Shown one piece after another: positions 7,277-61,809 of a stretch of 62,109 bases of DNA (position 1 is the stretch's first letter; the number at the start of each line of letters is the position of its first letter). This DNA is from Deltaproteobacteria bacterium. Lineage in GTDB: Bacteria; Desulfobacterota; Syntrophobacteria; BM002. The DNA lies in contig CP070735.1 of the NCBI GenBank assembly GCA_020347625.1, positions 2,628,902 to 2,691,010 of the forward strand. Reading direction: 5' to 3'. The notes under the pieces are model-generated. The model was not told where the DNA came from. It did not search any database and saw nothing but the letters and a program-made list of their open reading frames with translations. The translations under genes and the position numbers were made by a program.

Positions 7277-7487
7277 AAATCCGAAATTAAATTTAGGAAT
7301 TGGGGAATTAAGGAATTGAGGGATTGGACACGAATTCATTAAATTGTCTGTGCAAGCTTTTCTAATTCCTGAATCCCTTAATTCCAGAATTTCTCAATTT
7401 ATTTGGGTGTTTCGGATTTCGACCCGCCCGCCTCGCCTGAACGAGCAGGCTCGCGATGGCGGGCAGGTATTCGGATTTCGGATTTGC
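7277..7487. repeat. nested heptamer-array hairpin element (etfA-fabG gap)
   Basis: AAATCCG AAATTAA ATTTAGG AATTGGG GAATTAA GGAATTG...AATTCCT GAATCCC TTAATTC...CGGATTT. A second hairpin is CCCGCCCGCC...GGCGGGC. Confidence 0.8.
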
Positions 7488-7552
7488 TTAGAGGCGATAT
7501 TGGAAATTGTCAACTTCTCTTAATTTAATTTTTAGGCCTGCGGGGTGAAAAG

Positions 7553-8305
7553 ATGGCTGAGAACGACAAGAGGGTAGCGGTTGTTACTGGAGGGTCAAAG
7601 GGCATAGGTCGTGCAATTATCATGGCACTGGCTGAACCGGGGTTGACAGTGGTGTTTAATCACTATGATCCTCCCGATGACAAGGCCGCAGACGAGACCA
7701 TCCAAATGGCACGGGACAAAGGGTGCGAAATCGAGGGGGTTCGACTGGATGTCTCAGATTACCAGGCGGTTCAGGAGTTCATCAAAGGTGTGGTGGAGCG
7801 TCATGACCGGGTTGACATCCTGGTTAACAACGCCGGCATTACCCGGGACAACCTTCTGTCAAGACTGAAAGAGGTGGATTGGGATGCGGTACTGGCGGTG
7901 AATCTCAAAAGTGTCTTCAACTGCACCCAAGCAGTTGCCCGCTACATGATGAAGCAGCGTTACGGTCGAGTGGTGAGCATAGCATCAGTTGTGGGGGCTA
8001 TGGGTAACGCAGGCCAGGCCAACTATGCGGCATCCAAGGCGGGCATTATGGGATTCACCAAGTCGGTGGCGCGCGAATTGGCGAGCCGCAATGTGACCGT
8101 TAATGCGATCGCTCCTGGTTTTATCGAGACTGAGATGACGGCACAGCTCCCCGAGAAGGCCAAGGAGGCCTTTCTGGCCCAGATTCCACTGGGTCGTGCC
8201 GGCCAGCCTGAGGATGTTGCCCAGTTGGTGAAATTCCTAGTTTCAGAGGAGGGTTCGTACATCACGGGCCAGGTAATTCATTTGAACGGCGGAATGTATA
8301 TGTAG
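7553..8305 (+). CDS. fabG: 3-oxoacyl-ACP reductase
   Basis: SDR with TGGSKGIG, NNAG and YAASKAG. Confidence 0.9.
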   Translation: MAENDKRVAVVTGGSKGIGRAIIMALAEPGLTVVFNHYDPPDDKAADETIQMARDKGCEIEGVRLDVSDYQAVQEFIKGVVERHDRVDILVNNAGITRDNLLSRLKEVDWDAVLAVNLKSVFNCTQAVARYMMKQRYGRVVSIASVVGAMGNAGQANYAASKAGIMGFTKSVARELASRNVTVNAIAPGFIETEMTAQLPEKAKEAFLAQIPLGRAGQPEDVAQLVKFLVSEEGSYITGQVIHLNGGMYM

Positions 8306-8447
8306 GCGCCTAGCATGCTAGCCGCCCGCAGAGAGCTCGGGGCATGGGGCATAGAGGGACATGTATTTCTGTAATATACACTATGCTTCATGGTCGATGA
8401 CCAGAGAAACAACATTTTTGCCGTTCCTCAACAGGTAGGAATATACG

Positions 8448-9689
8448 ATGAAAAGACGGGTCGTAGTTACGGGTCTAGGTCTGGTGACACCATTGGCAAT
8501 CGGAGTTGAAGAGACATGGTCGGCCCTGGTGGCCGGTAAATCGGGTATTGGTCCCATAACCAAATTCGATGCCAGCGAGACGACCACTAAGATTGCCGGG
8601 GAAGTCAAAGATTTCAATCCAGAGGATTACGTCTCCCGCAAAGAGGTCAGGCGGATGGACCTGTTCACCATCTACTCCCTGGCAGGCACCCGGATGGCCG
8701 TAGAGGATGCCAAACTGGTAATCAACGGCAACAACGCCAATCGGGTTGGAGTGGTAATTGGAACCGGTCTGGGTGGTCTCGGCACCTTCGAAAAATTCCA
8801 CAAGATTCTGCTGGAGGAAGGTCCAAAAAAGGTCAGCCCTTTCTTCATTCCCATGCTAATTGCCAATATGGCACCCGGTCAGATCTCCATTGTATACGGA
8901 GCCAAGGGGCCGAATATGGCCATTGAAACGGCATGTGCTGCTGGCACTCACGCAATTGGCGATGCCTTCAAGCAGATCCAGCGCGGTGCTGCTGATGTGA
9001 TGATCACAGGCGGGGTGGAGGCAACAGTCACGCCGCTGGCGATAAGCGGTTTCAATGCCATGCGGGCCATCTCCACCCGCAATGACGCCCCGGAAAAGGC
9101 CTCCCGTCCTTTTGACCTGGACAGGGATGGCTTTGTTTTGTCTGAGGGCTGTGGCATCCTCATCCTGGAAGCGCTGGATTATGCTCTCGAGCGAGGAGCC
9201 AAGATTCATGCGGAGGTCATCGGCTACGGTCTCACTGGAGACGGCTACCACATGGCGGCTCCGGCACCCGAGGGCGAGGGCATGGCCCGTTGCATGCAAA
9301 TGGCTGTTGATGATGCTGGGATTGCGCCCGAAGAGGTAGATTACATCAACGCGCACGGTACCTCCACCGACTTGAATGACAGATTTGAAACGCAAGCGAT
9401 AAAGACTGTTTTTGGCGAGCACAGCTATAAACTTGCCGTGAGTTCCACCAAGTCCATGACCGGACACCTTCTCGGTGGGGCAGGTGGGGCGGAGACTGCT
9501 TTCACCGTTTTGGCCATACAGAGAGGGATCATCCCCCCGACCATCAATTATGAAAATCCTGATCCGGACTGTGATTTGGATTACGTGCCCAACGTCTGTC
9601 GCGAGGCAGATGTGCGAATTGCGCTTACCAATTCATTCGGTTTCGGTGGAACCAACGCTGCGCTGGTTTTACGGCGTTACGACCCCTGA
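8448..9689 (+). CDS. fabF: 3-oxoacyl-ACP synthase II
   Basis: KAS II (ACAAG active-site Cys, HGTST, GHLLGAAG, FGFGGTN). Confidence 0.92.
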
Positions 9690-9723
9690 GACAGCACCCC
9701 GTGTTCTTTTTTGGAGGCTCTAT

Positions 9724-10155
9724 ATGAAAGTGGTTATTGGTAGTGATCATGCAGGCTTTTCCATGAAAACGCACGTCAGGACCTTGCTGGAGAACATGGG
9801 ACACACTGTGGAGGATGTGGGTTGCTACAGTGAAGAATCTGTGGACTACCCAGTCTACGGCAAGGCGGTGGCAACGGGTGTTGCCAGCGGCGAATTTCCC
9901 AAGGGGATTCTCATCTGTGGCTCAGGGCAGGGTATGGCAATGATTGCCAACCGTTTTGTTGGCGTGCGGGCAGCCTTGTGCAACGATCTTTTTAGTGCTG
10001 TTCTGAGCAGGCGGCACAACGACGCCAATCTCCTGGTTATGGGGGGAAGGCTGATCGGAGCCGACTTGGCAGGGGAAATTGTTGCAACCTGGCTGAACAC
10101 AGAGTTTGATGGCGGCCGCCACCAGGGCAGGGTAGCGCAGCTGGATGAAATCTGA
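9724..10155 (+). CDS. rpiB: ribose-5-phosphate isomerase B
   Basis: MKVVIGSDHAGF..CGSGQGM. The ATG at 9724 was chosen because the ORF-track start 9475 overlaps fabF. Confidence 0.88.
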   Translation: MKVVIGSDHAGFSMKTHVRTLLENMGHTVEDVGCYSEESVDYPVYGKAVATGVASGEFPKGILICGSGQGMAMIANRFVGVRAALCNDLFSAVLSRRHNDANLLVMGGRLIGADLAGEIVATWLNTEFDGGRHQGRVAQLDEI

Positions 10156-10156
10156 T

Positions 10157-10320
10157 CATTTGGCATTTGGCATTTCGCGTTTCAAATCTCAAAACTGCAA
10201 TCAAAGAATACAGTAGCCAGTAGTCAAGGGCGAATTACTCCTGTTTGCTTTTCTCCTGAATTCTGACTCCTGACTCCTCACTCTATGCCCCATGCTCCAT
10301 GCCTTCTCACATCTCAAAAA
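10157..10320. repeat. composite heptamer-array element (copy A)
   Basis: CATTTGG x2.., GTAGCCA GTAGTCA, core AGGGCGAATTACTCCTGTTTGC, CTGACTC x2, CCATGCT CCATGCC. Confidence 0.85.
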
Positions 10321-10424
10321 GCATTTATCGTTGGACATTTTTATTTCTTTTGGCTATCCTCACTAACCGGCTATCCCTAGACAGGGTTCACTACGGTTGA
10401 ATTACACCAGAAGATGTTACGGAC

Positions 10425-11684
10425 ATGATAGATCTGGAGAGAATAGACCCGCAGATTGCAGAATCCATCCGGTTGGAGGAGCAAAGGCAGCTACAGAGGC
10501 TGGAACTCATTGCCTCGGAAAATTTTGCCAGTCCGGCAGTCAGGCAAGCACAGGCCAGCGTCCTGACCAACAAATATGCGGAGGGCTATCCCGGCCACCG
10601 ATATTATGGTGGCTGTGAATTTGTGGATACAGCGGAAAGTTTAGCGATTGAGCGGGCGAAAGAGTTGTTTGCTGCCGAATATGCCAACGTTCAACCGCAT
10701 TCCGGTTCACAGGCAAACATGGCAGTTTTTTTCTCGATCTTACAGCCGGGCGACACCATTATGGGTATGGACCTGCGCCATGGGGGCCATCTGACCCACG
10801 GCAGCCCCGTGAATTTTTCCGGCCGACTTTTCAGAGTGATATCCTACGGGGTAAATCGGCAGACGGAAACCATAGACATGGAGGCGCTTGAACGACTGGC
10901 TAAAGAGCAGCGACCCAAGCTGGTCATCGCCGGGGCAAGCAGCTACCCCCGGGCGATAAACTTTGCTTTTTTTCAAAGCGTCTGTGATGAGATTGGCGCC
11001 TATCTGATGGTGGATATGGCACACATTGCTGGTTTGGTGGCTGCTGGAGTCCATCCAAGTCCCATTCCACACAGCGACTTTGTGACCTCCACCACCCACA
11101 AGACCCTCAGGGGACCCAGGGGAGGTCTGATACTCGCCAGAGAGGGCCACGCCGACAAACTCAACAAGCAGATCTTTCCCGGTATACAGGGTGGACCACT
11201 CATGCACGTCATCGCTGCCAAAGCCGTGGCTTTCAAGGAGGCTCTTACTGCCGAGTTCCGCTCTTACCAAAAACAAATTGTGGTTAATGCCAAACGGCTG
11301 GCAGCGGAGTTGTTGGACAGAGGTTTTCGTCTGGTCTCCGGAGGAACCGATAATCACATACTACTCGTTGACCTGCGGGGGAAGGGACTTACCGGAGCGC
11401 AAGCCGAGGTCATTTTGGACAAGGCTTGGATCACGGTAAACAAGAACAGCATTCCATTCGATCCGGAAAAGCCTGCTGTAACAAGTGGTATCCGAGTCGG
11501 GACTCCGGCGGTGACCACGCGGGGCATGAAAGAGAATGATATGGCTGTAATAGCCAAGTTTATCCACCAGGCCCTCGAAGCTGGTGATGATGCTGCCGTG
11601 CTGGAGCAACTGAGCCGCCAGGTTGGCGATTTCTGTTCGCAGTTCCCTTTACACAAACCCGTATACGAGATGGAGGCGGCTTGA
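10425..11684 (+). CDS. glyA: serine hydroxymethyltransferase
   Basis: SHMT over full length ([19 protein letters not shown]). Confidence 0.95.
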
Positions 11685-42291: not shown

Positions 42292-42648
42292 CTATGACTT
42301 GGGTAGTTTTGCCTTAAAGTCCTCCAAGGCCATTTGTTCGAGATACTCTCTGTCGTCGGCGGATATCTCGGTAAATTTTACACCGATGATTCGGGGCCGA
42401 TTGGACTGGTCTTTACTGTCTGACCATATAACTATGGCTGCCACCTCCAAGGGTTCCCTCTCGGGAGCCTTTATTGTCATTTGTACCGGTTCATCGAGAT
42501 CCACGTGCTCTGTGCAGCGAATATGAGCTCCTCCAGCACTAATATCTCTCGTTTTCCCTTCCACAAATCCTTTTGAGGTCTCCAATTTGACAGGCCACTC
42601 TACTCTAAGTCTGAAGGACAGACGCTTTTGATCGCCAACCTCAATCAT
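42292..42648 (-). CDS. PilZ domain protein
   Basis: RLSFR and DISAGG motifs. Paralogous to 22000..22281 and 23075..23437. Confidence 0.78.
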   Translation of the reverse strand: MIEVGDQKRLSFRLRVEWPVKLETSKGFVEGKTRDISAGGAHIRCTEHVDLDEPVQMTIKAPEREPLEVAAIVIWSDSKDQSNRPRIIGVKFTEISADDREYLEQMALEDFKAKLPKS

Positions 42649-42767
42649 CTACACCCCCATTCTGCTTTCACATGAGCAAACTTACCTTTCTGAGCAAATT
42701 CTACAAAAAGCATGCCAAAAGCCGCGTGAGAAAAACCGTAAGATAAGCCTGGATCTGACAAGTCAGG

Positions 42768-42960: not shown

Positions 42961-44095
42961 CTCGCCCGAGTAAGTGCAGATTGCCGATATGGACGTTCTT
43001 CAGGCCGGCGCTTTCGGCGACCTCCTTGCAGCGGAGCGCATGGCTGCGGGAGGTGGTTGGAAGGTCTTGCAGATGAAAATGAGGATAAAAACCGAGAAGA
43101 CTATAGGGGATCTCTGGGTTCAACTGGGCGATGTAGCGCGCAATTCCTGCGACTTCCACCTCGTCCACATAGCCCGGCACCAAGAGGGTGCTGGCAATCA
43201 GAAAAGGTGGCACCGGCCTTTGCTGGACGAACTCGCTCAACACTTTGAAGTTATCTAGAGTTTTTCGATTTGTCACCCCACAAAGGGCATGGTGAACACT
43301 TTCATTCCATGCCTTGAGATCAAATTTTATTAATCCACCCGAGTCAAATGATAACCTTGCCATCATACTCAGGAAGGGCTCTTGCACGGCCCCATTGGTC
43401 TCCCAGCAAATCCTGAGGACGCGCTCAGATGCCATTTGCAGAGCCAGTTTTGAGGCCTTAAGGGCATGGAGAATTTGCGGAGTCGGATCTCCACCGAAAT
43501 AGCAAATGCAGCTGGTGTTAAGCTTCACCGCTCCAGCCAACTGCTTTGCAGTGACACGTTGAGTTGAGCGAGTTCGATCTTTGAACTGGTGATTTTGACA
43601 ATAAAGGCAATTAAAGGAACAGGCATTATAGAAGACAGCCAGATTGTTATGGCCATGTTCAGGGCCGTCGGAAACAGCATACTGTGGATAGCCACAGCCC
43701 GTACCACCCGGACAAACAAAATCACCCACACAGTTTGTGGGAAGGGGGTCGTAATAATAGGAGAGATTTCCCTCGTGCGGCCGGCCGCCCTTTATCTTAC
43801 CGTCTTCCGCTCGGCGGAGGCCGCAGAAGCCAACACCGCCCTCGGGGATTTTGCATAGATGAACGCAAAGCTTACAGGCGACCCCAGACTCAGCCCGGGG
43901 CGGGCTCTCCGGTAGACCGTAGGGTTTTCGGGTACGAGCGTGAACGCTTTTGATTTCAGGCCAAACATCCTCAAAGTGGGACCGGATACAATTTGCACAG
44001 AAGCCTATGACATCGGAAATGGCTGGACTACTCTTGCCGCATTGTCGGCATTTGCCCGAGGGAATTCTAACTAGCACCTTTCCAATACCGGTCAT
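42953..44095 (-). CDS. radical SAM enzyme, AmmeMemoRadiSam-type
   Basis: CSFNCLYC (CX3CX2C) motif. N-terminal CKLCVHLCKIPEGGVGFCGLR resembles the AmmeMemoRadiSam family. Confidence 0.7.
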   Translation of the reverse strand: MTGIGKVLVRIPSGKCRQCGKSSPAISDVIGFCANCIRSHFEDVWPEIKSVHARTRKPYGLPESPPRAESGVACKLCVHLCKIPEGGVGFCGLRRAEDGKIKGGRPHEGNLSYYYDPLPTNCVGDFVCPGGTGCGYPQYAVSDGPEHGHNNLAVFYNACSFNCLYCQNHQFKDRTRSTQRVTAKQLAGAVKLNTSCICYFGGDPTPQILHALKASKLALQMASERVLRICWETNGAVQEPFLSMMARLSFDSGGLIKFDLKAWNESVHHALCGVTNRKTLDNFKVLSEFVQQRPVPPFLIASTLLVPGYVDEVEVAGIARYIAQLNPEIPYSLLGFYPHFHLQDLPTTSRSHALRCKEVAESAGLKNVHIGNLHLLGRDY

Positions 44096-44130
44096 TAGCC
44101 ACTCTCAGAAAAAAGATTTATACATATTTT

Positions 44131-44348
44131 GATGGAGTAATGGAGTGACTAGAAATTCCAAATAACAAATCACAAATCCCAAACAAATCACAATGACCAA
44201 AATTCGAAATTCCAAACCTGTTTTTTGTTTTGGTCATTTGGTATTGGAATTTGAGATTTGTTTGTAATTTGGTGCTTGGAGTTTGGGATTTCATTAACTC
44301 CAACATTCCATCATTCCAGTATTCCACTATTCCAGTACTGCAGTACTC
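44131..44348. repeat. about 220-nt nested heptamer hairpin element (copy S)
   Basis: GGAGT-type outer units. Inner arms CAAATAA CAAATCA CAAATCC CAAACAA... facing ...TTTGAGA TTTGTTT GTAATTT. Positions 44227-44292 are the exact reverse complement of 61575-61640. Confidence 0.9.
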
Positions 44349-44352
44349 TATT

Positions 44353-44868
44353 TTACCTTTGTATCTTACTCAGGAAAAGATCCAGGGCCAAATCCCGGGT
44401 GTTTTCGGTAATAGGTATCACCAAAACGTCATGACGTTTCTTTATACCCTGAATAAAGTGGTCGCCTCTCATGGCAATAGAACCGATAACATGGTGTTCT
44501 GAATCCAGTACCTTTATCAAGATTTTCTTGAAAAGTGATGAGAAGCACTCCATTTTGCCTATTTCGTCAACAACGACTATCTCCCCGCTCTTGGCTGGTT
44601 GCATTGATGGCACAGCGACCTCGTCGAGATCGTGGAGATTCACCCCGTATTTACCCACTCTGAATTTACTTTTAATATTTTGATGAGCCAAAACGCCTGT
44701 TTTTCCATCCAGAGTAGTTATTGAAAACCCTACCCGCAGGCCCTTATGCCTTATCTCCCTGGTAAAAAAACCGGTTGCCGGTTTACCTATTTTCTGGATA
44801 ACCTTTTCGATCAGAGTGGATTTTCCGGATCGGGGCGGGCCGGTGACAAGAATGTTTGTGGCTGCCAC
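44353..44868 (-). CDS. THEP1/NTPase_1-type nucleoside triphosphatase
   Basis: ILVTGPPRSGKSTLIEKV P-loop, VVDEIGKME, about 170 aa. Confidence 0.75.
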   Translation of the reverse strand: MAATNILVTGPPRSGKSTLIEKVIQKIGKPATGFFTREIRHKGLRVGFSITTLDGKTGVLAHQNIKSKFRVGKYGVNLHDLDEVAVPSMQPAKSGEIVVVDEIGKMECFSSLFKKILIKVLDSEHHVIGSIAMRGDHFIQGIKKRHDVLVIPITENTRDLALDLFLSKIQR

Positions 44869-45038
44869 ATATACTCCTGGTGTTGGTTTGCCTCGGCTAT
44901 AAAGATATTAAGGCAAAAAGATAGGGTGAAAGTCAATCTTGGAATGATTAGGTTAGTAAAAGTAGGGGAGGGATGGGAGGATCGAGGCCATTCCTTCCCT
45001 CGTTCAATCGCGGCTGGAAGCCGCTCCAAGACCAATGA

Positions 45039-45128
45039 AACTAGGCACTAGGAACTATGCACTAGGCACTAAAATGAGCAACCAAATAAGATTTTCTGTG
45101 CTTAGTGCTTAGTGTTTAGTGTCCAGTA
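45039..45128. repeat. heptamer-array hairpin element
   Basis: AACTAGG CACTAGG AACTATG CACTAGG CACTAAA, a loop, then TGCTTAG TGCTTAG TGTTTAG TGTCCAG. Confidence 0.85.
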
Positions 45129-45146
45129 AATCAGAGGAGATTTACC

Positions 45147-45599
45147 ATGAAAACAAAATGTCTAGCATTAATTTTGACGCTCGCCATGGTTGCCTTCGGG
45201 GCAGGAAAGGCTTCGGCTCATTGTGAAATTCCCTGTGGCATCTATGACGATCAGTTACGAACGGATCTAATCGCTGAGCATGCCACCACAATTGAAAAGT
45301 CGATGAAAAAAATTGTGGAGTTGGGCAAGCAAAATCCCGTAAACTACAATCAGCTTGTTCGGTGGGTTTCAAACAAAGAGAAACACGCCAATGAAGTACA
45401 GCATATTGTCACCCAATACTTCATGACCCAGCGTATCAAACCAGATGCCAAGAAATACTCGGAAAAATTGACCGTTTTGCATCAAATGTTGATTGCAGCT
45501 ATGAAGTGTAAGCAGACTGCTGATCTCTCCAACGTGAATACCCTTCGGTCACTGCTGAAGGAATTTGAAATTCTCTATTTCGATCATACACACAAGTAA
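45147..45599 (+). CDS. sodN: nickel superoxide dismutase with Sec-type signal peptide
   Basis: Ni-hook HCEIPCGIYD immediately after MKTKCLALILTLAMVAFGAGKASA. GAGGAG RBS. Confidence 0.85.
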   Translation: MKTKCLALILTLAMVAFGAGKASAHCEIPCGIYDDQLRTDLIAEHATTIEKSMKKIVELGKQNPVNYNQLVRWVSNKEKHANEVQHIVTQYFMTQRIKPDAKKYSEKLTVLHQMLIAAMKCKQTADLSNVNTLRSLLKEFEILYFDHTHK

Positions 45600-45670
45600 T
45601 GGGAGAGAGGTGGTGTGGGCCGATTCGGCCCATATGTCTCTGACACAGGGGTAGAACGGGAAAGCTCTTG

Positions 45671-46996
45671 ATGGACCTGAAATTGGAAAATCTTCTGGCT
45701 GACAAGGAAAATCTGGAACGGATCCTCGACAACCTTATGGAAGGGATCATCGCGCACGACAAGGAAAGGCGCATCCTTTTCTTTAATCGGGCCGCAGAGA
45801 GAATAACCGGATACGATAGGATAGACATCCTGGGAAGGGACTGTCACGAGGCATTCGGGGCACCATTTTGTGGTGGGCGCTGCTCATTTTGCGGAGAACC
45901 GCCCAATTCCTGGACCCGGGTTGATTATCCCCTCAATATTGTCAGCAAGCAGGGCGATCCGAGACGGATCGAGATGTCGGTAACAGGGATGACCGATGAA
46001 ACCGGTTGCTTTGTGGGGGTGCTGGCCGCCTTCCGGGACGTGACCGATCTGATTGGCTTACAGATCAGGCTCGGTCAAGTTACCAGTTTTGCTGGAATAA
46101 TCGGGCAGGATCACAAGATGCTCCAAATCTTTGAGCAGATAAGGGAGTTGGCCACCAACGACTATCCGGTGAATATCACCGGTGAGACAGGAACGGGCAA
46201 AGAGCTTGTTGCCGCAGCCATCCACAATGAGAGTCAGAGAGGTGGGGGCCCCTTCGTCCCGATTAACTGCGGCGCCTTGCCTGAGGGCGTACTCGAGAGC
46301 GAGCTTTTCGGGCATGTGAAAGGAGCCTTCTCCGGGGCAATCCGGGACAAGAAGGGCAGGTTTGAGCTGGCAGATGAGGGCACCATTTTTCTTGACGAGG
46401 TGACAGATCTCCCCAAAAGCATGCAGGTAAAGCTCCTGCGTGTTCTGCAAGAGGGAACATTCGAGAGGGTGGGAGGCGAGGAAACTATCACGGTAAACGT
46501 GAGGGTGATCAGTGCCACCAACCGTGACCTGAAGCGCGAGGTGGATAGAAATAACTTTCGAGAAGACCTTTACTACCGGCTTAACGTAGTGCCCATTGAG
46601 CTGCCGCCACTTCGGGATCGAAAAAACGACATTCCTCTTTTGGTTGAACATTTTTTAAAGGCGGCCAGGGAAAAGGGGCAGAAAGCAACGGGACTATCCA
46701 AGAAAGCTCTGGCCGTAATGCTAGACTATCCATGGCCCGGAAATGTTCGCGAGTTACAAAATGCCATTCATTACGGACTGGTCAAGTGCAAGGGTAAGGT
46801 AATACAAATAGAAGACTTGCCCCTGGAACTGAGAGAAAGAAATTCTCGGCGCGGTCCGGTTAGAAAGCTTGATGAGCAGGCGGTAAGGGCTGCCCTGGAG
46901 TTGACGGGCGGCAACAAGGCCAAAGCTGCCAGACATTTGGGTGTCGGTCGCGCCACCCTCTATCGCTTCCTGGCGGATTTTCCGGATGTCTCATGA
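45671..46996 (+). CDS. sigma-54-dependent transcriptional activator with Cys-rich PAS sensor domain
   Basis: PAS domain containing CHEAFGAPFCGGRCSFC. AAA+ motifs GETGTGKE and GAFSGA. C-terminal Fis-type HTH. Confidence 0.9.
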   Translation: MDLKLENLLADKENLERILDNLMEGIIAHDKERRILFFNRAAERITGYDRIDILGRDCHEAFGAPFCGGRCSFCGEPPNSWTRVDYPLNIVSKQGDPRRIEMSVTGMTDETGCFVGVLAAFRDVTDLIGLQIRLGQVTSFAGIIGQDHKMLQIFEQIRELATNDYPVNITGETGTGKELVAAAIHNESQRGGGPFVPINCGALPEGVLESELFGHVKGAFSGAIRDKKGRFELADEGTIFLDEVTDLPKSMQVKLLRVLQEGTFERVGGEETITVNVRVISATNRDLKREVDRNNFREDLYYRLNVVPIELPPLRDRKNDIPLLVEHFLKAAREKGQKATGLSKKALAVMLDYPWPGNVRELQNAIHYGLVKCKGKVIQIEDLPLELRERNSRRGPVRKLDEQAVRAALELTGGNKAKAARHLGVGRATLYRFLADFPDVS

Positions 46997-47130
46997 GACA
47001 TATCTGTCTCATAATTAAACTTGAGACATCTAAAAGTGGAATTCTTTTCTTCTAGTCATTATTAGGTACAATGTTTATTGCTTAATCCCACTCATCGCTG
47101 CTGACTGATAAGTGTCTCATAGGTGTCTCA
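46987..47130. promoter_or_regulatory. upstream activator sites: six TGTCTCA/TGAGACA heptamers
   Basis: TGTCTCATGAGACA palindrome at 46987-47000 overlaps the activator stop codon. Further copies at 47005-47011, 47022-47028, 47113-47119 and 47124-47130. Confidence 0.6.
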
Positions 47131-47226
47131 CAAAACTCCGATGAGGCAATTAGTCCTTCAATAGTCATATTTATTTAACTATATAATATTACTTATTTTT
47201 ATAACTTTATCTACCAAACTGGTTTC

Positions 47227-47243
47227 TTGGCATGAATCTTGGG
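47227..47243 (+). promoter_or_regulatory. candidate sigma-54 (-24/-12) promoter
   Basis: TTGGCATGAATCTTGGG has correct GG-N10 spacing but -12 reads GG rather than GC. An AT-rich putative bend region (47161-47215) lies between the UAS and the promoter. Confidence 0.5.
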
Positions 47244-47307
47244 TTGGAGATTAAACACACATTAGAAAGAAACTCACAACAGAGACATCTACGGAGGAGA
47301 AACAATA

Positions 47308-47481
47308 ATGTCTCGAGAGCGGCTGACAACTGGTACTGAGGTGGCTCCGGGTATATACAGATGTAATGCCTGCGCCAAGCAGATTGACTGTCAAGACGAA
47401 GAGTGCAAGTTGCCCCAGTGCAGCGCTTGTGGCAGCTTTTCGTGGAGAACGACCAGGCTGCTAAGCAAAAAAGATTCCTAA
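47308..47481 (+). CDS. 57-aa zinc-ribbon mini-protein
   Basis: Not in the ORF track. ACGGAGGAG RBS. Translation MSRERLTTGTEVAPGIYRCNACAKQIDCQDEECKLPQCSACGSFSWRTTRLLSKKDS. Confidence 0.6.
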   Translation: MSRERLTTGTEVAPGIYRCNACAKQIDCQDEECKLPQCSACGSFSWRTTRLLSKKDS

Positions 47482-47498
47482 ATCGCAAGGAGGGAGAG

Positions 47499-47699
47499 AT
47501 GAGCAAGAAAAGATACGAAGTGAAAGGCAAATGCCCCAATTGTGCCTGCGGTACTATTTCTGACATGAGCGCAGAAGAGATTAAGGCCAAGACGATCGAT
47601 GGGGACAAGTTGGAGATCCATTGCCCCGAGTGCATGGAAGTACATCAGGCCAACATCAGGTCAGTCTGCCCCGAATACGCAGACGAATGCCACCTGTAG
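47499..47699 (+). CDS. 66-aa Cys-rich mini-protein
   Basis: AGGAGGGAG RBS. MSKKRYEVKGKCPNCAC...HCPECMEVH...CPEYADECHL. The ORF-track start 47403 is judged too early. Confidence 0.6.
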   Translation: MSKKRYEVKGKCPNCACGTISDMSAEEIKAKTIDGDKLEIHCPECMEVHQANIRSVCPEYADECHL

Positions 47700-47721
47700 A
47701 TCGTTTAAGGAAGGAGATAGC

Positions 47722-47931
47722 ATGGCAAAGCCGGAAGACATGTATCAGTGCCAGACGACTAATTGTGGTTGTCTCTATGATCCGGATCGTGGAGACAGAA
47801 GAAGTAAGATTCCCAAGGGGACAGATTTTGATAATTTGCCCGGGGAGTGGAAATGTCCGGTTTGTGGCGCCGGTAAGAAGATGTTTCGGCCACTCCGAGG
47901 ACCGGGTTCGGTAGTAGAGGAGGGTAGCTAA
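47722..47931 (+). CDS. type-2 rubredoxin (Rdl-like, CX4C first knuckle)
   Basis: YQCQTTNCGCLYDPDRGD...WKCPVCGAGK. AAGGAGA RBS. Confidence 0.8.
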   Translation: MAKPEDMYQCQTTNCGCLYDPDRGDRRSKIPKGTDFDNLPGEWKCPVCGAGKKMFRPLRGPGSVVEEGS

Positions 47932-47968
47932 GAGCTTTAATTAACGCTTAGCGAGAAAGTGAACCATT

Positions 47969-48172
47969 TTGAAACCTTGCAATCAGACCATAAAGAAGAC
48001 ATTGGATATGGTGGACAGCATGCTCATCCTTGCAGACGAGGGCGATGCTGTGCGTGAAGATGTTGGATGCGGCATACTTTACGCTGTGTTGCGGGATTCG
48101 GCATACAAAATAAAAAAGCTGGCCGAGGCGGAGCGCAAAGCTCACTTTGAGAAGGGCTGGTGGCAAGAGTAA
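47969..48172 (+). CDS. hypothetical small protein
   Basis: ORF in an operon context. Start is uncertain (TTG 47969 or ATG 48008). Confidence 0.4.
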   Translation: MKPCNQTIKKTLDMVDSMLILADEGDAVREDVGCGILYAVLRDSAYKIKKLAEAERKAHFEKGWWQE

Positions 48173-48189
48173 GCAGGGGAGGTGAGACA

Positions 48190-48300
48190 ATGGCAACTTT
48201 CAAATGCAATACCTGCGGTCATGAAAAAGAAGGAAGATGTAAACCCCAGAAATGCCCTGAGTGCGGCGAAAAGAAGACATTCGAAAAAAAGTCCTCATAG
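48190..48300 (+). CDS. 36-aa zinc-ribbon mini-protein
   Basis: Not in the ORF track. GGGGAGG RBS. Translation MATFKCNTCGHEKEGRCKPQKCPECGEKKTFEKKSS. Confidence 0.55.
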   Translation: MATFKCNTCGHEKEGRCKPQKCPECGEKKTFEKKSS

Positions 48301-48315
48301 CTGTGGAGAGAGCTG

Positions 48316-49146
48316 ATGCGGATGGGACCCCTTGAGCTTTACAAAAAACTGCCAAAGACTAACTGCGGCGATTGTGGTCATCCCTCTTGCCTTGCCTTCG
48401 CCACCCAGGTTGTCGGATATGGCCAAGACCTTCGAGACTGCCCTCACCTGGCAGAGGCTGCCCTCCAGGAGGTGGAGAGTATAATTGAGGAGCAAAGAAA
48501 AGAAGGTGTCTACGTCAAGCAAGATAATCACAAAATAACCCGGGATCACCTGAGAGAGAAGATTAAGAGCCACGACTTCAAATCAATCGCTCCGGGGCTG
48601 GGGGTGAGTTACTCAGAAGATAACGGCTTGGTTACTCTGAAAATTCCATATTTCGATCGCGTGGTCAGCATGAGCCATAGTGGGATCTTGGCTGAGAACA
48701 GTGAGGAGTTTGATCCCTGGGATGAAGTACTTCTCTATAATTACATCTTTTTTGCCGGTTCAAAGCCTTTGAGCGGCGATTGGGTAGGATTGGAAAATTT
48801 CCCGAATTCTTTGCCCAAGCGTGCGGCACTTGATGAGGGTTGTCACCGACGCATCAGTGAGGTCTTTTCTGGGGCCAGAACTGCACTGGAAAGTGCTTGT
48901 CAGAAGCTAGGAGGCACAAGAGTGGTAGATGGACACAGCGGTGACCTGGCCTTTCAGTTTCAACCGCTTCCCAGGATGCCACTTCGTCTGCTTTTTTGGG
49001 ACGAAGATAGGGAGGAGGGCTTCGAAGCACAGTCCAAGGTCCTTTTCAACGCAGCAGCCATAGAATATCTGGACCTCGAAGGTCTAACTTTTGTGGCCGA
49101 GAAACTGGCCAATAAATTGATTCAAATTAAGAAAGGAGGAACTTGA
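48316..49146 (+). CDS. putative Fe-S cluster domain + DUF3786-like protein
   Basis: N-terminal CGDCGHPSCLAF...DCPHL resembles the putative Fe-S domain of corrinoid Fe-S proteins. The body is DUF3786-like. Confidence 0.6.
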   Translation: MRMGPLELYKKLPKTNCGDCGHPSCLAFATQVVGYGQDLRDCPHLAEAALQEVESIIEEQRKEGVYVKQDNHKITRDHLREKIKSHDFKSIAPGLGVSYSEDNGLVTLKIPYFDRVVSMSHSGILAENSEEFDPWDEVLLYNYIFFAGSKPLSGDWVGLENFPNSLPKRAALDEGCHRRISEVFSGARTALESACQKLGGTRVVDGHSGDLAFQFQPLPRMPLRLLFWDEDREEGFEAQSKVLFNAAAIEYLDLEGLTFVAEKLANKLIQIKKGGT

Positions 49147-49640
49147 TGTCTAAGACGGAACAGAATCTGAGGGATGCTTTTGCTGGGGAGTCCCAGGCCA
49201 ACCGTAAATATCTTGCCTTTGCAGAAAAGGCTGAGAAAGAGGGGTACCCGCAGGTTGCCAAACTATTTCGAGCTGCAGGTGCGGCAGAAACTGTTCATGC
49301 CCACGCTCATTTGCGCGCCCTGGGGGAGATTGGCAGCACTGCAGAGAACCTTAATGTTGCCGTGGCCGGTGAAACCCACGAGTTTAAGAGTATGTATCCT
49401 GAAATGATCGAGGTCGCCAAGGAAGAGGGCAACAAGAAGGCAGAGAGAAGCTTTGTCTTTGCCAATGAGGTGGAGAAGGTCCACGCTGACCTTTATCAGC
49501 AAGCTCTGGACAACCTGGATAGCCTCGAAGAGGCGGACTACTACGTTTGCAGTGTATGCGGCATGACCGTTGAAAATGAACCTCCTGACACCTGCCCGGT
49601 GTGCGGTGCAAAAGCCAGCGCTTTTTTCAAGGTGGACTAA
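49146..49640 (+). CDS. rbr: rubrerythrin
   Basis: Diiron ferritin-like domain (NLRDAFAGESQANRKY, ETHE) plus a C-terminal rubredoxin knuckle CSVCG..CPVCG. The ATG overlaps the upstream TGA. Confidence 0.9.
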   Translation: MSKTEQNLRDAFAGESQANRKYLAFAEKAEKEGYPQVAKLFRAAGAAETVHAHAHLRALGEIGSTAENLNVAVAGETHEFKSMYPEMIEVAKEEGNKKAERSFVFANEVEKVHADLYQQALDNLDSLEEADYYVCSVCGMTVENEPPDTCPVCGAKASAFFKVD

Positions 49641-49706
49641 TCGTTCTACGGTTCCCAACCTACCTGGGTTCGAGGGATAATCTCGAAGGTCAGATTCGTT
49701 TCTCGA

Positions 49707-49759
49707 GCCCGGAGGTTGTAACGCTCGCCGGTACAGGGTAACGGATTCCACCTCCGGGC
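49707..49759 (+). promoter_or_regulatory. 10-bp perfect inverted repeat with 33-nt loop between rbr and the next ORF
   Basis: GCCCGGAGGT (49707-49716) pairs with ACCTCCGGGC (49750-49759). There is no U-tract and the function is unknown. Confidence 0.3.
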
Positions 49760-49780
49760 ATTGAAAATGGAGGTAACCAC

Positions 49781-50134
49781 ATGTTGACTATCGAAGAAAT
49801 AAAGGAAAACCAAGAAATTATGGACTGCCTTAACCTGGAGATGACTCCTGAGAAGGCGGTGGCTCTTTACCTGGAGTGGGGCTCATCCTGGGCCCACGGT
49901 CGGGACTTTGTCAGATCCAACACTGATGTGAGTTGCTACTTCACCATCGATGCCTGGGAGAAGCCGGCAAAGCTTCTTCTGATAAGGCGGAGCATGGCGG
50001 AAGGGGAAATCCTTGGAGAAGTGGACGCGCCGCGTGAGCTTGTGGAAAGGGAACTCGAAGCCTGGGGCGGTAGGAGAGGAAGCTACGGGATCAGTGAATT
50101 GCTGAAAGAGTGGCTTCGTTCGCAGCTCAGTTGA
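49781..50134 (+). CDS. hypothetical protein
   Basis: GGAGG RBS. No family recognised. Confidence 0.55.
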   Translation: MLTIEEIKENQEIMDCLNLEMTPEKAVALYLEWGSSWAHGRDFVRSNTDVSCYFTIDAWEKPAKLLLIRRSMAEGEILGEVDAPRELVERELEAWGGRRGSYGISELLKEWLRSQLS

Positions 50135-50196
50135 AATGATCTCTGCCCCGTGCAATATGGGATCACTGAAAATTAGTCGAGACCGTAATGACAGAA

Positions 50197-50230
50197 ATGC
50201 CAGCCCCAATGGGCTGGCATTTTTCCTTTT
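50197..50230 (+). terminator. intrinsic terminator
   Basis: ATGCCAGCCC-caat-GGGCTGGCAT followed by TTTTCCTTTTT. Confidence 0.75.
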
Positions 50231-50247
50231 TATTGAGTTGATAAACC

Positions 50248-50277
50248 TTGACGAGATTTAGTCGGAAAAACTATATT
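50248..50277 (+). promoter_or_regulatory. sigma-70-type promoter of the ferritin-like gene
   Basis: TTGACG, 18-nt spacer, TATATT. Confidence 0.4.
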
Positions 50278-50327
50278 CGAGGTAGGCTTAACATTGGTTT
50301 TACCAAACCCAGCTACGGAGGTTCGTT

Positions 50328-51185
50328 ATGGAAAAGTCGGAATTGATCGCGATGTTGAACAAGGACATCGCCGAGGAGCATGCGGCGATCATTCGCTATC
50401 TTACTCATAGCTATTTAGAGGGTGAAGATACCCCTATCGGTGCAGGTTTGCTGTCTCGCTCCAGGGAGGAAATGTGGCATATGCACTGGCTTGGCATGGT
50501 CATAGGAGACCTGGGTGGTGAGCCCAATTTGACGCCAGCCCCTTACCCCTATGACCCCACCAATCGCGAAACAATCTTCAAGTCCTATGTTGAGTATGAG
50601 CTGAAGTTGGTCCCCCACTACAAGGGAGAGGCGGACAGAGTGGATGACCCTCACATTAAGCGGGTATTAGAGCGGGAGGGCTGGGAATCCGCTATGCACG
50701 CAAAGAAATTTCAAAGGGTGTTGGACAAGCTCACTCCAGATGAAGCCGCGGGTGTTCCAGGAGAAGAGAATGAGCTGCCCAAAGAGTTCGTCGATCAACT
50801 TCAGGATCTGGTGGCAAGCAAGTACACCCAAGTGTTGCAGCACGTGCGAAATGGTTGGGTCCTCCAACGGGAAGGAATCACCGGCTGGGAACTTATGGAC
50901 TTCTCCATGACCCAGATGAAGCAACTGGCCCATATTGCCGAAGAGGTGGCTGAAAATGGAATAACGCCGCGGCTCGAGGCTGGTCAAATCGATACGAGTC
51001 GGTCCATCGGTGTGGCGCTGCAAAAAACCCTGGAGGACGTGCGTGCCTCTCGTGAACGCCACCTGAAGTTCCGTGATGACAGTGAAACGCAGAAACATGC
51101 AGGCCTCGTTGTTAACCTGGACCTCACCCTCCAGCAGGAGGAGTATGAGGCAGGCGAAATCGAGGACTGGATTAAGAAGCTATAA
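50328..51185 (+). CDS. ferritin-like (bacterioferritin-family) protein, apparently tandem-domain
   Basis: LNKDIAEEHAAIIRY and EEMWH in the first half, with a similar helical pattern in the second half. Confidence 0.65.
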   Translation: MEKSELIAMLNKDIAEEHAAIIRYLTHSYLEGEDTPIGAGLLSRSREEMWHMHWLGMVIGDLGGEPNLTPAPYPYDPTNRETIFKSYVEYELKLVPHYKGEADRVDDPHIKRVLEREGWESAMHAKKFQRVLDKLTPDEAAGVPGEENELPKEFVDQLQDLVASKYTQVLQHVRNGWVLQREGITGWELMDFSMTQMKQLAHIAEEVAENGITPRLEAGQIDTSRSIGVALQKTLEDVRASRERHLKFRDDSETQKHAGLVVNLDLTLQQEEYEAGEIEDWIKKL

Positions 51186-51199
51186 TCAAGGAGAAAATA

Positions 51200-51859
51200 A
51201 TGGCAAAGATCGGTGTGCTTCTCTCAGGATGTGGCGTATTTGACGGTGCAGAAATACATGAGGCTGTGCTAACCATGCTGGCGCTGGACCGGGCCGGCGC
51301 TACAATTGTCTGCATGGCACCAGATGTCGACCAGTACCACGTGGTCAATCACCTAACACAGGAAGAAATGACTGAAAAGCGGAACGTGCTGGTGGAATCA
51401 GCTCGCATTGCCCGTGGCGAGATAAAGGATCTCAAAGATGTCAAAGCTGCTGATTTGGATGGTCTGATCATGCCCGGTGGGTTCGGCGCGGCTAAGAACC
51501 TGAGCGACTTTGCCTTCAAGGGTGCAGAATCCACTGTCGAAGCCGAGGTAAAACGGATCCTCGAGGAAATGTCGGCGGCTAGTAAACCCATTGGTGCGAT
51601 CTGTATCTCCCCGGCTCCCTTGGCCAAAGCGCTTTCTGCCAAGAAACCCGAGGTGACCATCGGAAACGATCAATCCACTGCAGAGGCCATTGAAGCCATG
51701 GGCGGTCAGCACAAAACTTGCACGGTGGATATGATTCATGTGGACGGTGCAAACAAAGTGGTCACCACACCTGCCTACATGCTGGGGCCTGGCATCAAAG
51801 ACGTGGCAGTCGGTATTGAGAAGTTGGTGCACAAGGTGCTTGAACTTGCCGGGGGTTAG
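51200..51859 (+). CDS. elbB: ElbB-type DJ-1/PfpI family glyoxalase
   Basis: MAKIGVLLSGCGVFDGAEIHE N-terminus and GAICISP nucleophile elbow. Confidence 0.82.
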   Translation: MAKIGVLLSGCGVFDGAEIHEAVLTMLALDRAGATIVCMAPDVDQYHVVNHLTQEEMTEKRNVLVESARIARGEIKDLKDVKAADLDGLIMPGGFGAAKNLSDFAFKGAESTVEAEVKRILEEMSAASKPIGAICISPAPLAKALSAKKPEVTIGNDQSTAEAIEAMGGQHKTCTVDMIHVDGANKVVTTPAYMLGPGIKDVAVGIEKLVHKVLELAGG

Positions 51860-52084
51860 GGAGAACGTATCTGCAGCCTTTTAGAGAGGCAAAATAAACT
51901 TAATAAATAACATTATATTTTGAATGAATATTTAAACAATAATAATTATATATAGAGCGGTTACTTTGACTAGTAAACCACTGGTGTAGCTTTTTAAGGT
52001 ACGGTCTCACAACATGGTTTTTCCACTTTAAATAGTAGCGCCGGGCCACAGTCAACGTTAAAAAACCAGGATAAAAGAGAGCCT

Positions 52085-61733: not shown

Positions 61734-61809
61734 CGAAGCGATTGAAGTGGAAGGAACTGAGAGCCTGCGTTGATGATGCTCTATAGTCAGCTTGGCCGTG
61801 TGTTGCGCC

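Follow-up and report, generated by a model that had tools for sequence, protein, structure and literature searches.

The window analysed here (62,109 nucleotides of contig CP070735.1 from a member of the Deltaproteobacteria) contains a gene for a predicted sigma-54-dependent activator, followed by an intergenic region with clustered TGTCTCA heptamers and by eight genes in the same orientation, among them those for a rubredoxin and a rubrerythrin. Based on sequence comparisons we propose, with a probability of about 0.6, that this locus forms a redox or oxygen-stress unit that is self-contained and enhancer-dependent, in which the activator would sense the redox state through a Cys-rich PAS domain of the type described for the regulator OrpR and would drive the downstream operon from a -24/-12 promoter. 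This reading is supported because each of its elements is backed by comparative evidence, and not by one consensus match. Coordinates of all features are collected in Table 1.

The activator is 100% identical to a protein from a metagenome-assembled genome (MAG) of Deltaproteobacteria/Syntrophobacterales that is annotated as "sigma-54-interacting regulator", and the contigs of relatives with 79–85% identity keep the same order, the activator first and then the operon. Our Pfam analysis identified a PAS domain (residues 14–126), the Sigma54_activat domain (PF00158, residues 143–310, E-value 2e-71), AAA_lid_14 and a C-terminal helix-turn-helix (HTH) domain HTH_8 (residues 398–432, E-value 5e-10), and revealed no receiver, HisKA or HATPase domain, in agreement with the initial annotation of this stretch, which had described an activator devoid of a receiver. 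The catalytic motifs GETGTGKE and FLDEV are present, and the loop GAFSGA replaces GAFTGA. The AAA+ motifs, the Fis-type HTH and the upstream sites near a -24/-12 element together identify the protein as a predicted bacterial enhancer-binding protein (bEBP), a class whose sites are expected about 100–150 bp from such a promoter. It reaches no equivalog cutoff in NCBIfam, a database that has no OrpR model. The HTH sequence, GGNKAKAARHLGVGRATLYRFL, is kept within the clade of the activator and is unlike the HTH of OrpR.

OrpR (DVU2106) from Desulfovibrio vulgaris Hildenborough is a sigma-54 activator composed of PAS, AAA+ and HTH domains, whose PAS domain holds a redox-sensitive [4Fe-4S]2+ cluster and possesses the conserved residues C52, C61 and C65 (C-x8-C-x3-C) plus D/E54 (Fievet et al. 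2021, PMC8359166). OrpR works with sigma-54 and integration host factor (IHF) and controls the cell-division-related orp genes; it is on when reduced and is turned off by its PAS domain as the redox potential rises, while variants with the PAS domain deleted or with Cys-to-Ser substitutions are constitutively active (PMC8359166). For comparison we used an OrpR orthologue from a metagenome locus (L153), which a scan of metagenomes for the published OrpR box had identified. This is an orp locus, in which two OrpR boxes flank an activator gene set between MinD/FeS-type and Nitro_FeMo-Co-like genes, and the encoded protein has C52, D54, C61 and C65 exactly at the published positions. BLASTP aligned the activator from the window with this orthologue at 40% identity over 446 aa (E-value 1e-101), and the PAS domains alone at 31% identity (E-value 1e-14). 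The initial annotation had noticed a four-Cys motif C-x8-C-x3-C-x2-C in the PAS domain, which we recovered as C58, C67, C71 and C74. Residues C58, E60, C67 and C71 align column for column with C52, D54, C61 and C65 of the OrpR orthologue, and C74 aligns with C70 of OrpR across a gap of two residues. The activator therefore displays both the architecture and the three Cys plus acidic residue that characterize OrpR-type Fe-S PAS bEBPs, to which we provisionally assign it. As OrpR is the right comparator, the type of sensor has already been published.

The similarities extend beyond the ligand columns: both regulators lack a receiver, in both the acidic residue stands two positions after the first Cys, and both adjoin their targets, which are preceded by a sigma-54-type promoter with an IHF site (both predicted in the window). 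The differences concern the DNA site (pairs of TGTCTCA heptamers here, GGGCGYRTTTTGCGCCC in OrpR), the targets (oxygen-defence genes here, orp genes in OrpR), the presence here of a fourth Cys two residues after the third, and possibly the polarity, which may be reversed. The OrpR box was not found near the locus; its sole match in the window, at position 61794, has three mismatches and is at chance level. Because the OrpR box is absent, the HTH differs and the neighbours are not orp genes, the activator is best regarded, from its sequence and context, as an OrpR paralogue whose DNA site and regulon are different, and not as an orthologue of OrpR.

In a search with the PAS domain against 1.8 billion representative proteins, CHxxF-x3-FCGxxCxFC emerged as the signature of a wide range of sigma-54 activators. 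Across this family C58 and C67 never vary, C71 hardly does, and C74 is absent in about one third of the members; P0142 is a three-Cys relative. The AlphaFold2 model of the PAS domain is confident overall (predicted local distance difference test, pLDDT, 87.6). Sequence searches of the PDB and Foldseek searches with this domain identified only generic PAS, LOV, DosP and NifL structures, and no Fe-S PAS structure among them. In some relatives the core of Cys-PAS, AAA+ and HTH domains is fused to an N-terminal LMWPc/ArsC-like domain with the CTGNSxRS motif or to a GAF domain (proteins P0151, P0158, P0164, P0217 and P0233, of about 588 aa, as well as P0141 and P0252; loci L024, L044, L049, L054, L056, L063–L065, L070, L071, L074, L075, L081 and L085). 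Such fusions suggest a modular stacking of redox sensors ahead of the Fe-S PAS domain.

The heptamer TGTCTCA/TGAGACA occurs 14 times in the window, compared to 7.4 expected occurrences, and six of these copies, at the positions listed in the initial annotation (46987, 46994, 47005, 47022, 47113 and 47124), fall inside 144 bp. A Poisson estimate for a stretch of this length puts lambda at about 0.017 and P(>=6) at about 1e-13. Four of them constitute a putative distal enhancer cluster that begins with the palindrome TGTCTCATGAGACA, located over the stop codon of the activator gene as had been described, and the other two constitute a putative proximal enhancer with heptamers 11 bp apart. Further downstream, the previously noticed AT-rich tract has a GC content of 0.15 over positions 47160–47219, and it contains an IHF-like site. 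It is followed by the predicted sigma-54-type promoter, for which transcription would start near position 47253. In sigma-54 promoters a GG at -24 is separated by 10 bp from a GC at -12. The element proposed initially has this spacing and the -24 GG, whereas its -12 dinucleotide is GG and departs from the consensus. Within the window, only the promoter match at 47228 has heptamers upstream. A second match to TGGCAY-N5-TTGS, at 8560 on the minus strand, was taken as a chance occurrence because it lies inside a coding region. No convincing match to a sigma-70 promoter was found in the region 47000–47300, hence we rejected a sigma-70 promoter in this spacer, and a scan of the region with Rfam returned nothing relevant.

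To analyze the conservation of these elements we scanned GTDB species representatives with an alignment of six PAS domains, which yielded 489 relatives. The best 80 of the 489 loci were retrieved; they stem from Syntrophobacterales, Desulfobacterales or allied MAGs and, in one case, from a cultured strain, Desulforhabdus sp. TSK. The alignment of six orthologous intergenic regions (A1) comprises four invariant islands amid freely diverged DNA: TGTCTCATGAGACA-N4-TGTCTCA, TGTCTCA-N4-TGTCTCA, a TAAC...ATAT...TTT block, and TGGCAY-N2-ATCTTG. We then applied a strict filter, namely a pair of heptamers 10–12 bp apart (start to start, direct or inverted, with at most one mismatch in total) located 104–127 bp from a match to GG-N10-TG. 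Such a pair upstream of a GG-N10-TG(C/A/G) promoter match is present in 41 of the 71 non-redundant loci with enough downstream sequence, while the promoter pattern occurs elsewhere in the loci at 0.3 per kb. Most distances between the pair and the promoter are 110–117 or 124–127 bp, i.e. they form two groups about one helical turn apart, as expected for looping that depends on the face of the helix. An IHF-like site (consensus YAANNNNTTGATW, at most one mismatch) is found 51–54 bp upstream of the -24 TGG in 19 loci, and it is perfect in eight of them. Overall, 41–47 related loci keep the heptamer pairs, an IHF-like site and the -24/-12 element with the same order and spacing and with conserved sequence, although the intergenic DNA around them has diverged.

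Relatives that fail the first strict promoter pattern carry elements of the type TGGTAYGGACCTTGCC, with the canonical -12 TTGC. The canonical TTGC is typical for the Syntrophobacteraceae relatives (L019–L036, L062 and L076), and TTGA, TTGG or TTGT is found throughout the clade of the window (L001–L016); the unusual -12 element is therefore a lineage-wide departure from the GC rule. The heptamers of the distal cluster are found at the same offsets from the stop codon (-10, -3, +8 and +25) in many relatives. In L056 the palindromic heptamer pair over the activator stop codon is kept, though the p67 operon (named after a 67-aa protein, see below) has its own proximal pair and lies more than 4 kb away, and this may partly reflect the conservation of the C-terminal ...DVS codons. 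In other loci, too, several kb separate p67 from the activator. Ahead of the activator gene itself a conserved heptamer was found in only 4 of 81 loci. As the heptamers ahead of this gene are not conserved, we see no sign of autoregulation, and we rejected this possibility.

The genes behind the promoter are those expected of an oxygen-defence operon, as the initial annotation had called it, and its list of Cys-rich mini-proteins, a CX4C rubredoxin, an FeS/DUF3786 protein and a rubrerythrin agrees with our Pfam and NCBIfam assignments. The terminator predicted near 50197 was likewise detected, with a 14-bp stem and a T run. The tight packing reported for the operon applies to its first seven genes, which are separated by 15–37 nt, and not to the eighth, which is preceded by 140 nt. 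For a view of the whole family, downstream open reading frames (ORFs) of 45 loci were clustered and the representatives were run through Pfam. This analysis identified desulfoferrodoxin in 15 loci, flavodoxin in 14, the 66-aa Cys-rich protein in 11, the DVU0772 family in 7, cytochrome bd oxidase in 5 (including Desulforhabdus sp. TSK), and thiol peroxidase (Tpx) and a Fur-family protein in 3 loci each; flavodiiron protein, rubrerythrin and rubredoxin are also recurrent. Given this gene content, the oxygen-defence label holds family-wide. A homologue of Ni-superoxide dismutase (Ni-SOD), the enzyme encoded directly upstream of the activator in the window, is found inside an activator-controlled operon in L018. 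In the cultured Desulforhabdus sp. TSK (L027, positions 7300–11316) the module is followed by p67, flavodoxin and cydAB (cytochrome bd oxidase). The Fur-family (PerR-like) gene resides inside the homologous operon in L050, L052 and L058, which hints at a layered control by sigma-54 and PerR in some genomes.

The most conserved gene downstream of the activator family encodes p67 (loci L018–L085), and in the wider family no other gene is found as often directly behind the module. The p67 family comprises 691 clusters at 90% identity, all of them annotated as hypothetical and none with a match in Pfam. Its invariant residues include C4, R29, E30, C34, E53, E55, H59 and KGWW. The structural model is a confident helical hairpin, for which our fold search found no significant structural neighbour. 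A metal- or redox-linked role of p67 is our guess.

Taken together, these features suggest the following mechanism. The PAS domain would most likely hold a [4Fe-4S] cluster on C58, C67 and C71, and the fourth ligand would be C74 and/or E60. Dimers of the activator would bind through the Fis-type HTH to heptamers one helical turn apart, both in the four-heptamer cluster over the activator stop codon and in the pair 115 bp upstream of the promoter. IHF would bend the AT-rich spacer, so that the AAA+ ring could contact the closed complex of sigma-54 RNA polymerase at TGGCAT-N5-TTGG and, upon ATP hydrolysis, open the promoter. The predicted eight-gene mRNA, extending from about position 47253 to the terminator, would provide rubredoxin-type carriers, the FeS/DUF3786 protein, rubrerythrin, the DVU0772-family protein and p67. 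By analogy to OrpR, the PAS domain would gate the ATPase activity rather than DNA binding. We further propose that oxidation or loss of the cluster lifts the inhibition by the PAS domain and thereby turns the operon on, opposite to OrpR. This polarity is the least certain step, and the balance tilts only slightly towards it; we favour it because the targets are all oxygen- or ROS (reactive oxygen species)-defence genes and the promoter would have no basal activity.

Several observations weigh against the proposed circuit. OrpR, the sole characterized relative, has the opposite polarity, being on when reduced; C74 is variable across the family; the PAS model is at its least confident in the Cys loop; the four cysteines could alternatively bind Zn or form disulfides; the noncanonical -12 dinucleotide of the window is GA or GT in close relatives; and 30 of the 71 loci fail our strict module filter. 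The first of these points leads to an alternative that is doubtful but deserves to be considered before the others, namely that the same circuit works with the polarity of OrpR: the holo [4Fe-4S]2+ form would activate transcription when reduced, and oxidation would make the PAS domain shut the ATPase, so that the iron-rich defence proteins would be made pre-emptively in anoxic growth and not during stress. In addition to the behaviour of OrpR and the constitutive activity of its PAS-deletion and Cys-to-Ser variants, the conservation of the ligand columns between both proteins argues for this possibility, as does the nature of the products, each of which contains a metal centre and depends on a supply of reductant and iron. 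On the other hand, with a sigma-54 promoter of essentially no basal activity any new synthesis of superoxide reductase, rubrerythrin, flavodiiron protein and cytochrome bd homologues would be blocked precisely when they are needed; moreover, the PAS domains are just 31% identical and the clade possesses the additional fourth Cys.

It is unlikely that the four-Cys loop has no part in Fe-S binding and instead binds structural Zn, acts as a thiol-disulfide switch, or belongs to a PAS domain that senses another ligand. CxxC loops often bind Zn, the variability of C74 and the lower pLDDT of the loop would be compatible with such a role, and some relatives add a thiol-based LMWPc/ArsC-like domain, but in the alignment the three invariant Cys and the acidic residue match the residues on which the [4Fe-4S] cluster of OrpR, demonstrated by spectroscopy, depends. 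Finally, we consider it very improbable that the heptamers are operators of another regulator (e.g. a repressor) and/or that the operon is read from a sigma-70 promoter, with the -24/-12 match being coincidental: the missing -12 GC in the window and the Fur-family gene in the homologous operon of three relatives would fit this explanation, but the -24/-12 element is fixed in position and has the canonical -12 TTGC in relatives, the distances between the upstream sites, the IHF-like site and the promoter are fixed and phased, the spacer contains no sigma-70 consensus, and the loci in which the module accompanies p67-type operons are all carriers of this activator.

As to a wider role, we tentatively suggest that the activator clade, with its hundreds of relatives among species representatives of Syntrophobacterales and Desulfobacterales, could be the main oxygen/redox-stress switch of these obligate anaerobes. 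With a polarity opposite to that of OrpR, oxidation of an all-Cys [4Fe-4S] PAS domain would turn a sigma-54 promoter on. In this view p67, which is nearly always the first target, would act as a new partner that modulates the activator by feedback or serves as a metal/redox chaperone.

The initial annotation likened the PAS domain to that of NreB from Staphylococcus, a histidine kinase with the Cys spacing C-x2-C-x11-C-x2-C. Both proteins have a PAS domain with four Cys, for which an O2-labile [4Fe-4S] cluster has been proposed or shown, but the output is a kinase in NreB and AAA+ plus HTH here, and the Cys spacing differs. We rejected an NreB-type oxygen sensor, as the activator has no kinase domain and OrpR, with its aligned Cys and acidic columns and the same output architecture, is a better match and the closest known relative. 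NorR from E. coli and Ralstonia is a bEBP with a mononuclear non-heme-iron GAF domain that senses nitric oxide and with GT-N7-AC sites; a metal-containing N-terminal domain that restrains AAA+ (predicted here) and several enhancer sites before a detoxification operon are features in common. In strict anaerobes the textbook mode of oxygen defence is derepression of the PerR/Fur type. The rbr-perR-rdl unit of Desulfovibrio vulgaris is reportedly controlled by PerR. It has genes in common with the operon described here, namely those for rubrerythrin, a rubredoxin-like protein with CX4C spacing and a member of the DVU0772 family, and differs in its control by Fur-family repression at a sigma-70 promoter, as opposed to the proposed activation at a -24/-12 promoter. 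No Fur-family ORF was found within positions 44000–52000 of the window; no search for PerR boxes was made.

Enhancer-dependent control of peroxide defence has been reported for the H2O2-sensing bEBP PexR in Myxococcus xanthus, an aerobic myxobacterium, and according to this December 2025 paper OrpR and AdhR are the only redox-responsive bEBPs known in obligate anaerobes (PMC12754779). Like the activator studied here, PexR is a sigma-54 activator for ROS-defence genes with a metal-dependent autoinhibitory N-terminal sensor (predicted in our case) and dyad repeats upstream; its sensor, however, is a Zn/Fe-binding GAF domain and not a Cys-PAS domain, and it targets ahpC and katB in an aerobe and also represses a sigma-A promoter (PMC12754779). 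The activator is not PexR-like, since its sensor part consists of PAS only, with no GAF domain. Hence the "different regulatory design" suggested initially must be qualified: the enhancer-dependent circuit is supported by comparative data, but its sensor type is known from OrpR and bEBP control of peroxide defence has a precedent in PexR.

Our literature searches turned up no report that rubrerythrin-type operons are under sigma-54/bEBP control in these lineages. The novelty lies in the paralogous clade, its DNA motif and its regulon, the sensor-activator type itself having been published in 2021. The locus would tie an OrpR-type Fe-S sensor to a toolkit of rubrerythrin, rubredoxin, superoxide reductase, flavodiiron protein, cytochrome bd and Ni-SOD, a link that spans a large and environmentally abundant group of syntrophs and sulfate reducers. 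As the cis elements have been delimited at base-pair resolution and Desulforhabdus sp. TSK is available as a carrier in culture, the cofactor, the polarity and the regulon are directly testable.

Table 1. Features of the activator locus; positions refer to the window.
Feature	Position	Strand	Evidence and remarks
Ni-SOD with Sec-type signal peptide	45147..45599	+	Pfam Sod_Ni 4.5e-34; ends 72 nt upstream of activator gene
Sigma-54 enhancer-binding protein, 441 aa (predicted)	45671..46996	+	Pfam; PAS + AAA+ + HTH_8
Predicted Fe-S ligand loop, C58-x8-C67-x3-C71-x2-C74 with E60	45842..45892	+	motif CHEAFGAPFCGGRCSFC; aligned to OrpR orthologue
Fis-type HTH_8 DNA-binding domain, residues 398–432	46862..46966	+	Pfam
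Distal enhancer cluster (putative), TGTCTCATGAGACA-N4-TGTCTCA-N10-TGAGACA	46987..47028	.	overlaps activator stop codon
Proximal enhancer (putative), TGTCTCA-N4-TGTCTCA	47113..47130	.	11 bp start to start; 115 bp upstream of -24
IHF-like site, TAACTATATAATA	47176..47188	-	two mismatches to YAANNNNTTGATW; 52 bp upstream of -24 TGG, inside 15% GC tract
Sigma-54-type promoter (predicted), TGGCAT-N5-TTGG, TGGCATGAATCTTGG	47228..47242	+	-24 GG at 47229-47230; -12 at 47241-47242
57-aa Cys-rich Zn-ribbon-like protein	47308..47481	+	first operon gene in this clade; homologues in 7 loci
66-aa Cys-rich protein	47499..47699	+	homologues in 11 loci
Rubredoxin, CX4C...CX2C spacing	47722..47931	+	Pfam Rubredoxin 7e-18
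67-aa helical-hairpin protein (p67)	47969..48172	+	no Pfam match
36-aa RCKP-type rubredoxin-like protein	48190..48300	+	NCBIfam NF045720, 65.7 bits, cutoff 45
Protein with N-terminal FeS domain (PF04060) and DUF3786	48316..49146	+	Pfam
Rubrerythrin	49146..49640	+	Pfam, NCBIfam
DVU0772-family protein, 117 aa	49781..50134	+	NCBIfam NF045682, 92 bits, cutoff 45
Intrinsic terminator, 14-bp stem, 4-nt loop, T run	50193-50224	+	end of predicted mRNA

The Ni-SOD gene is possibly co-transcribed with the activator gene. Its product has the signal peptide MKTKCLALILTLAMVAFGAGKASA, and the mature protein would start with HCEIPCGIY; cleavage by signal peptidase would expose the His1 ligand of Ni and would place the enzyme outside the cytoplasm. 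No gene for a SodX-type maturation peptidase was seen near the Ni-SOD gene. In one of the relatives (L001, positions 8854–10176) DUF3786 and rubrerythrin are called as a single protein of 440 aa. We set aside its interpretation as a true fusion (a Rosetta-stone link): the junction retains an AGGAGG ribosome-binding site and an ATG codon, and the single call is therefore probably due to an indel or an assembly frameshift.

Two further regions of the window deserve mention. Past the terminator, between positions 50248 and 51859, a sigma-70-like promoter (TTGACG-18-TATATT) precedes a gene for a 285-aa ferritin-like protein with a weak EncB-type match, behind which lies a gene for a 219-aa protein that we take, from inspection by eye, to be DJ-1/PfpI (ElbB)-like. 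Several close relatives keep the ferritin-like gene in synteny, and L006 alone yielded the 219-aa gene; the pair resembles a second oxidative-stress unit. On the other side of the locus, the sequence TGGCATGCTTTTTGT at positions 42703–42717 (minus strand, intergenic) may be another sigma-54-type promoter. It is located upstream of an ORF of 118 aa (42292–42648), presumably PilZ-like, and a PilZ-annotated gene occupies the corresponding place in L004.

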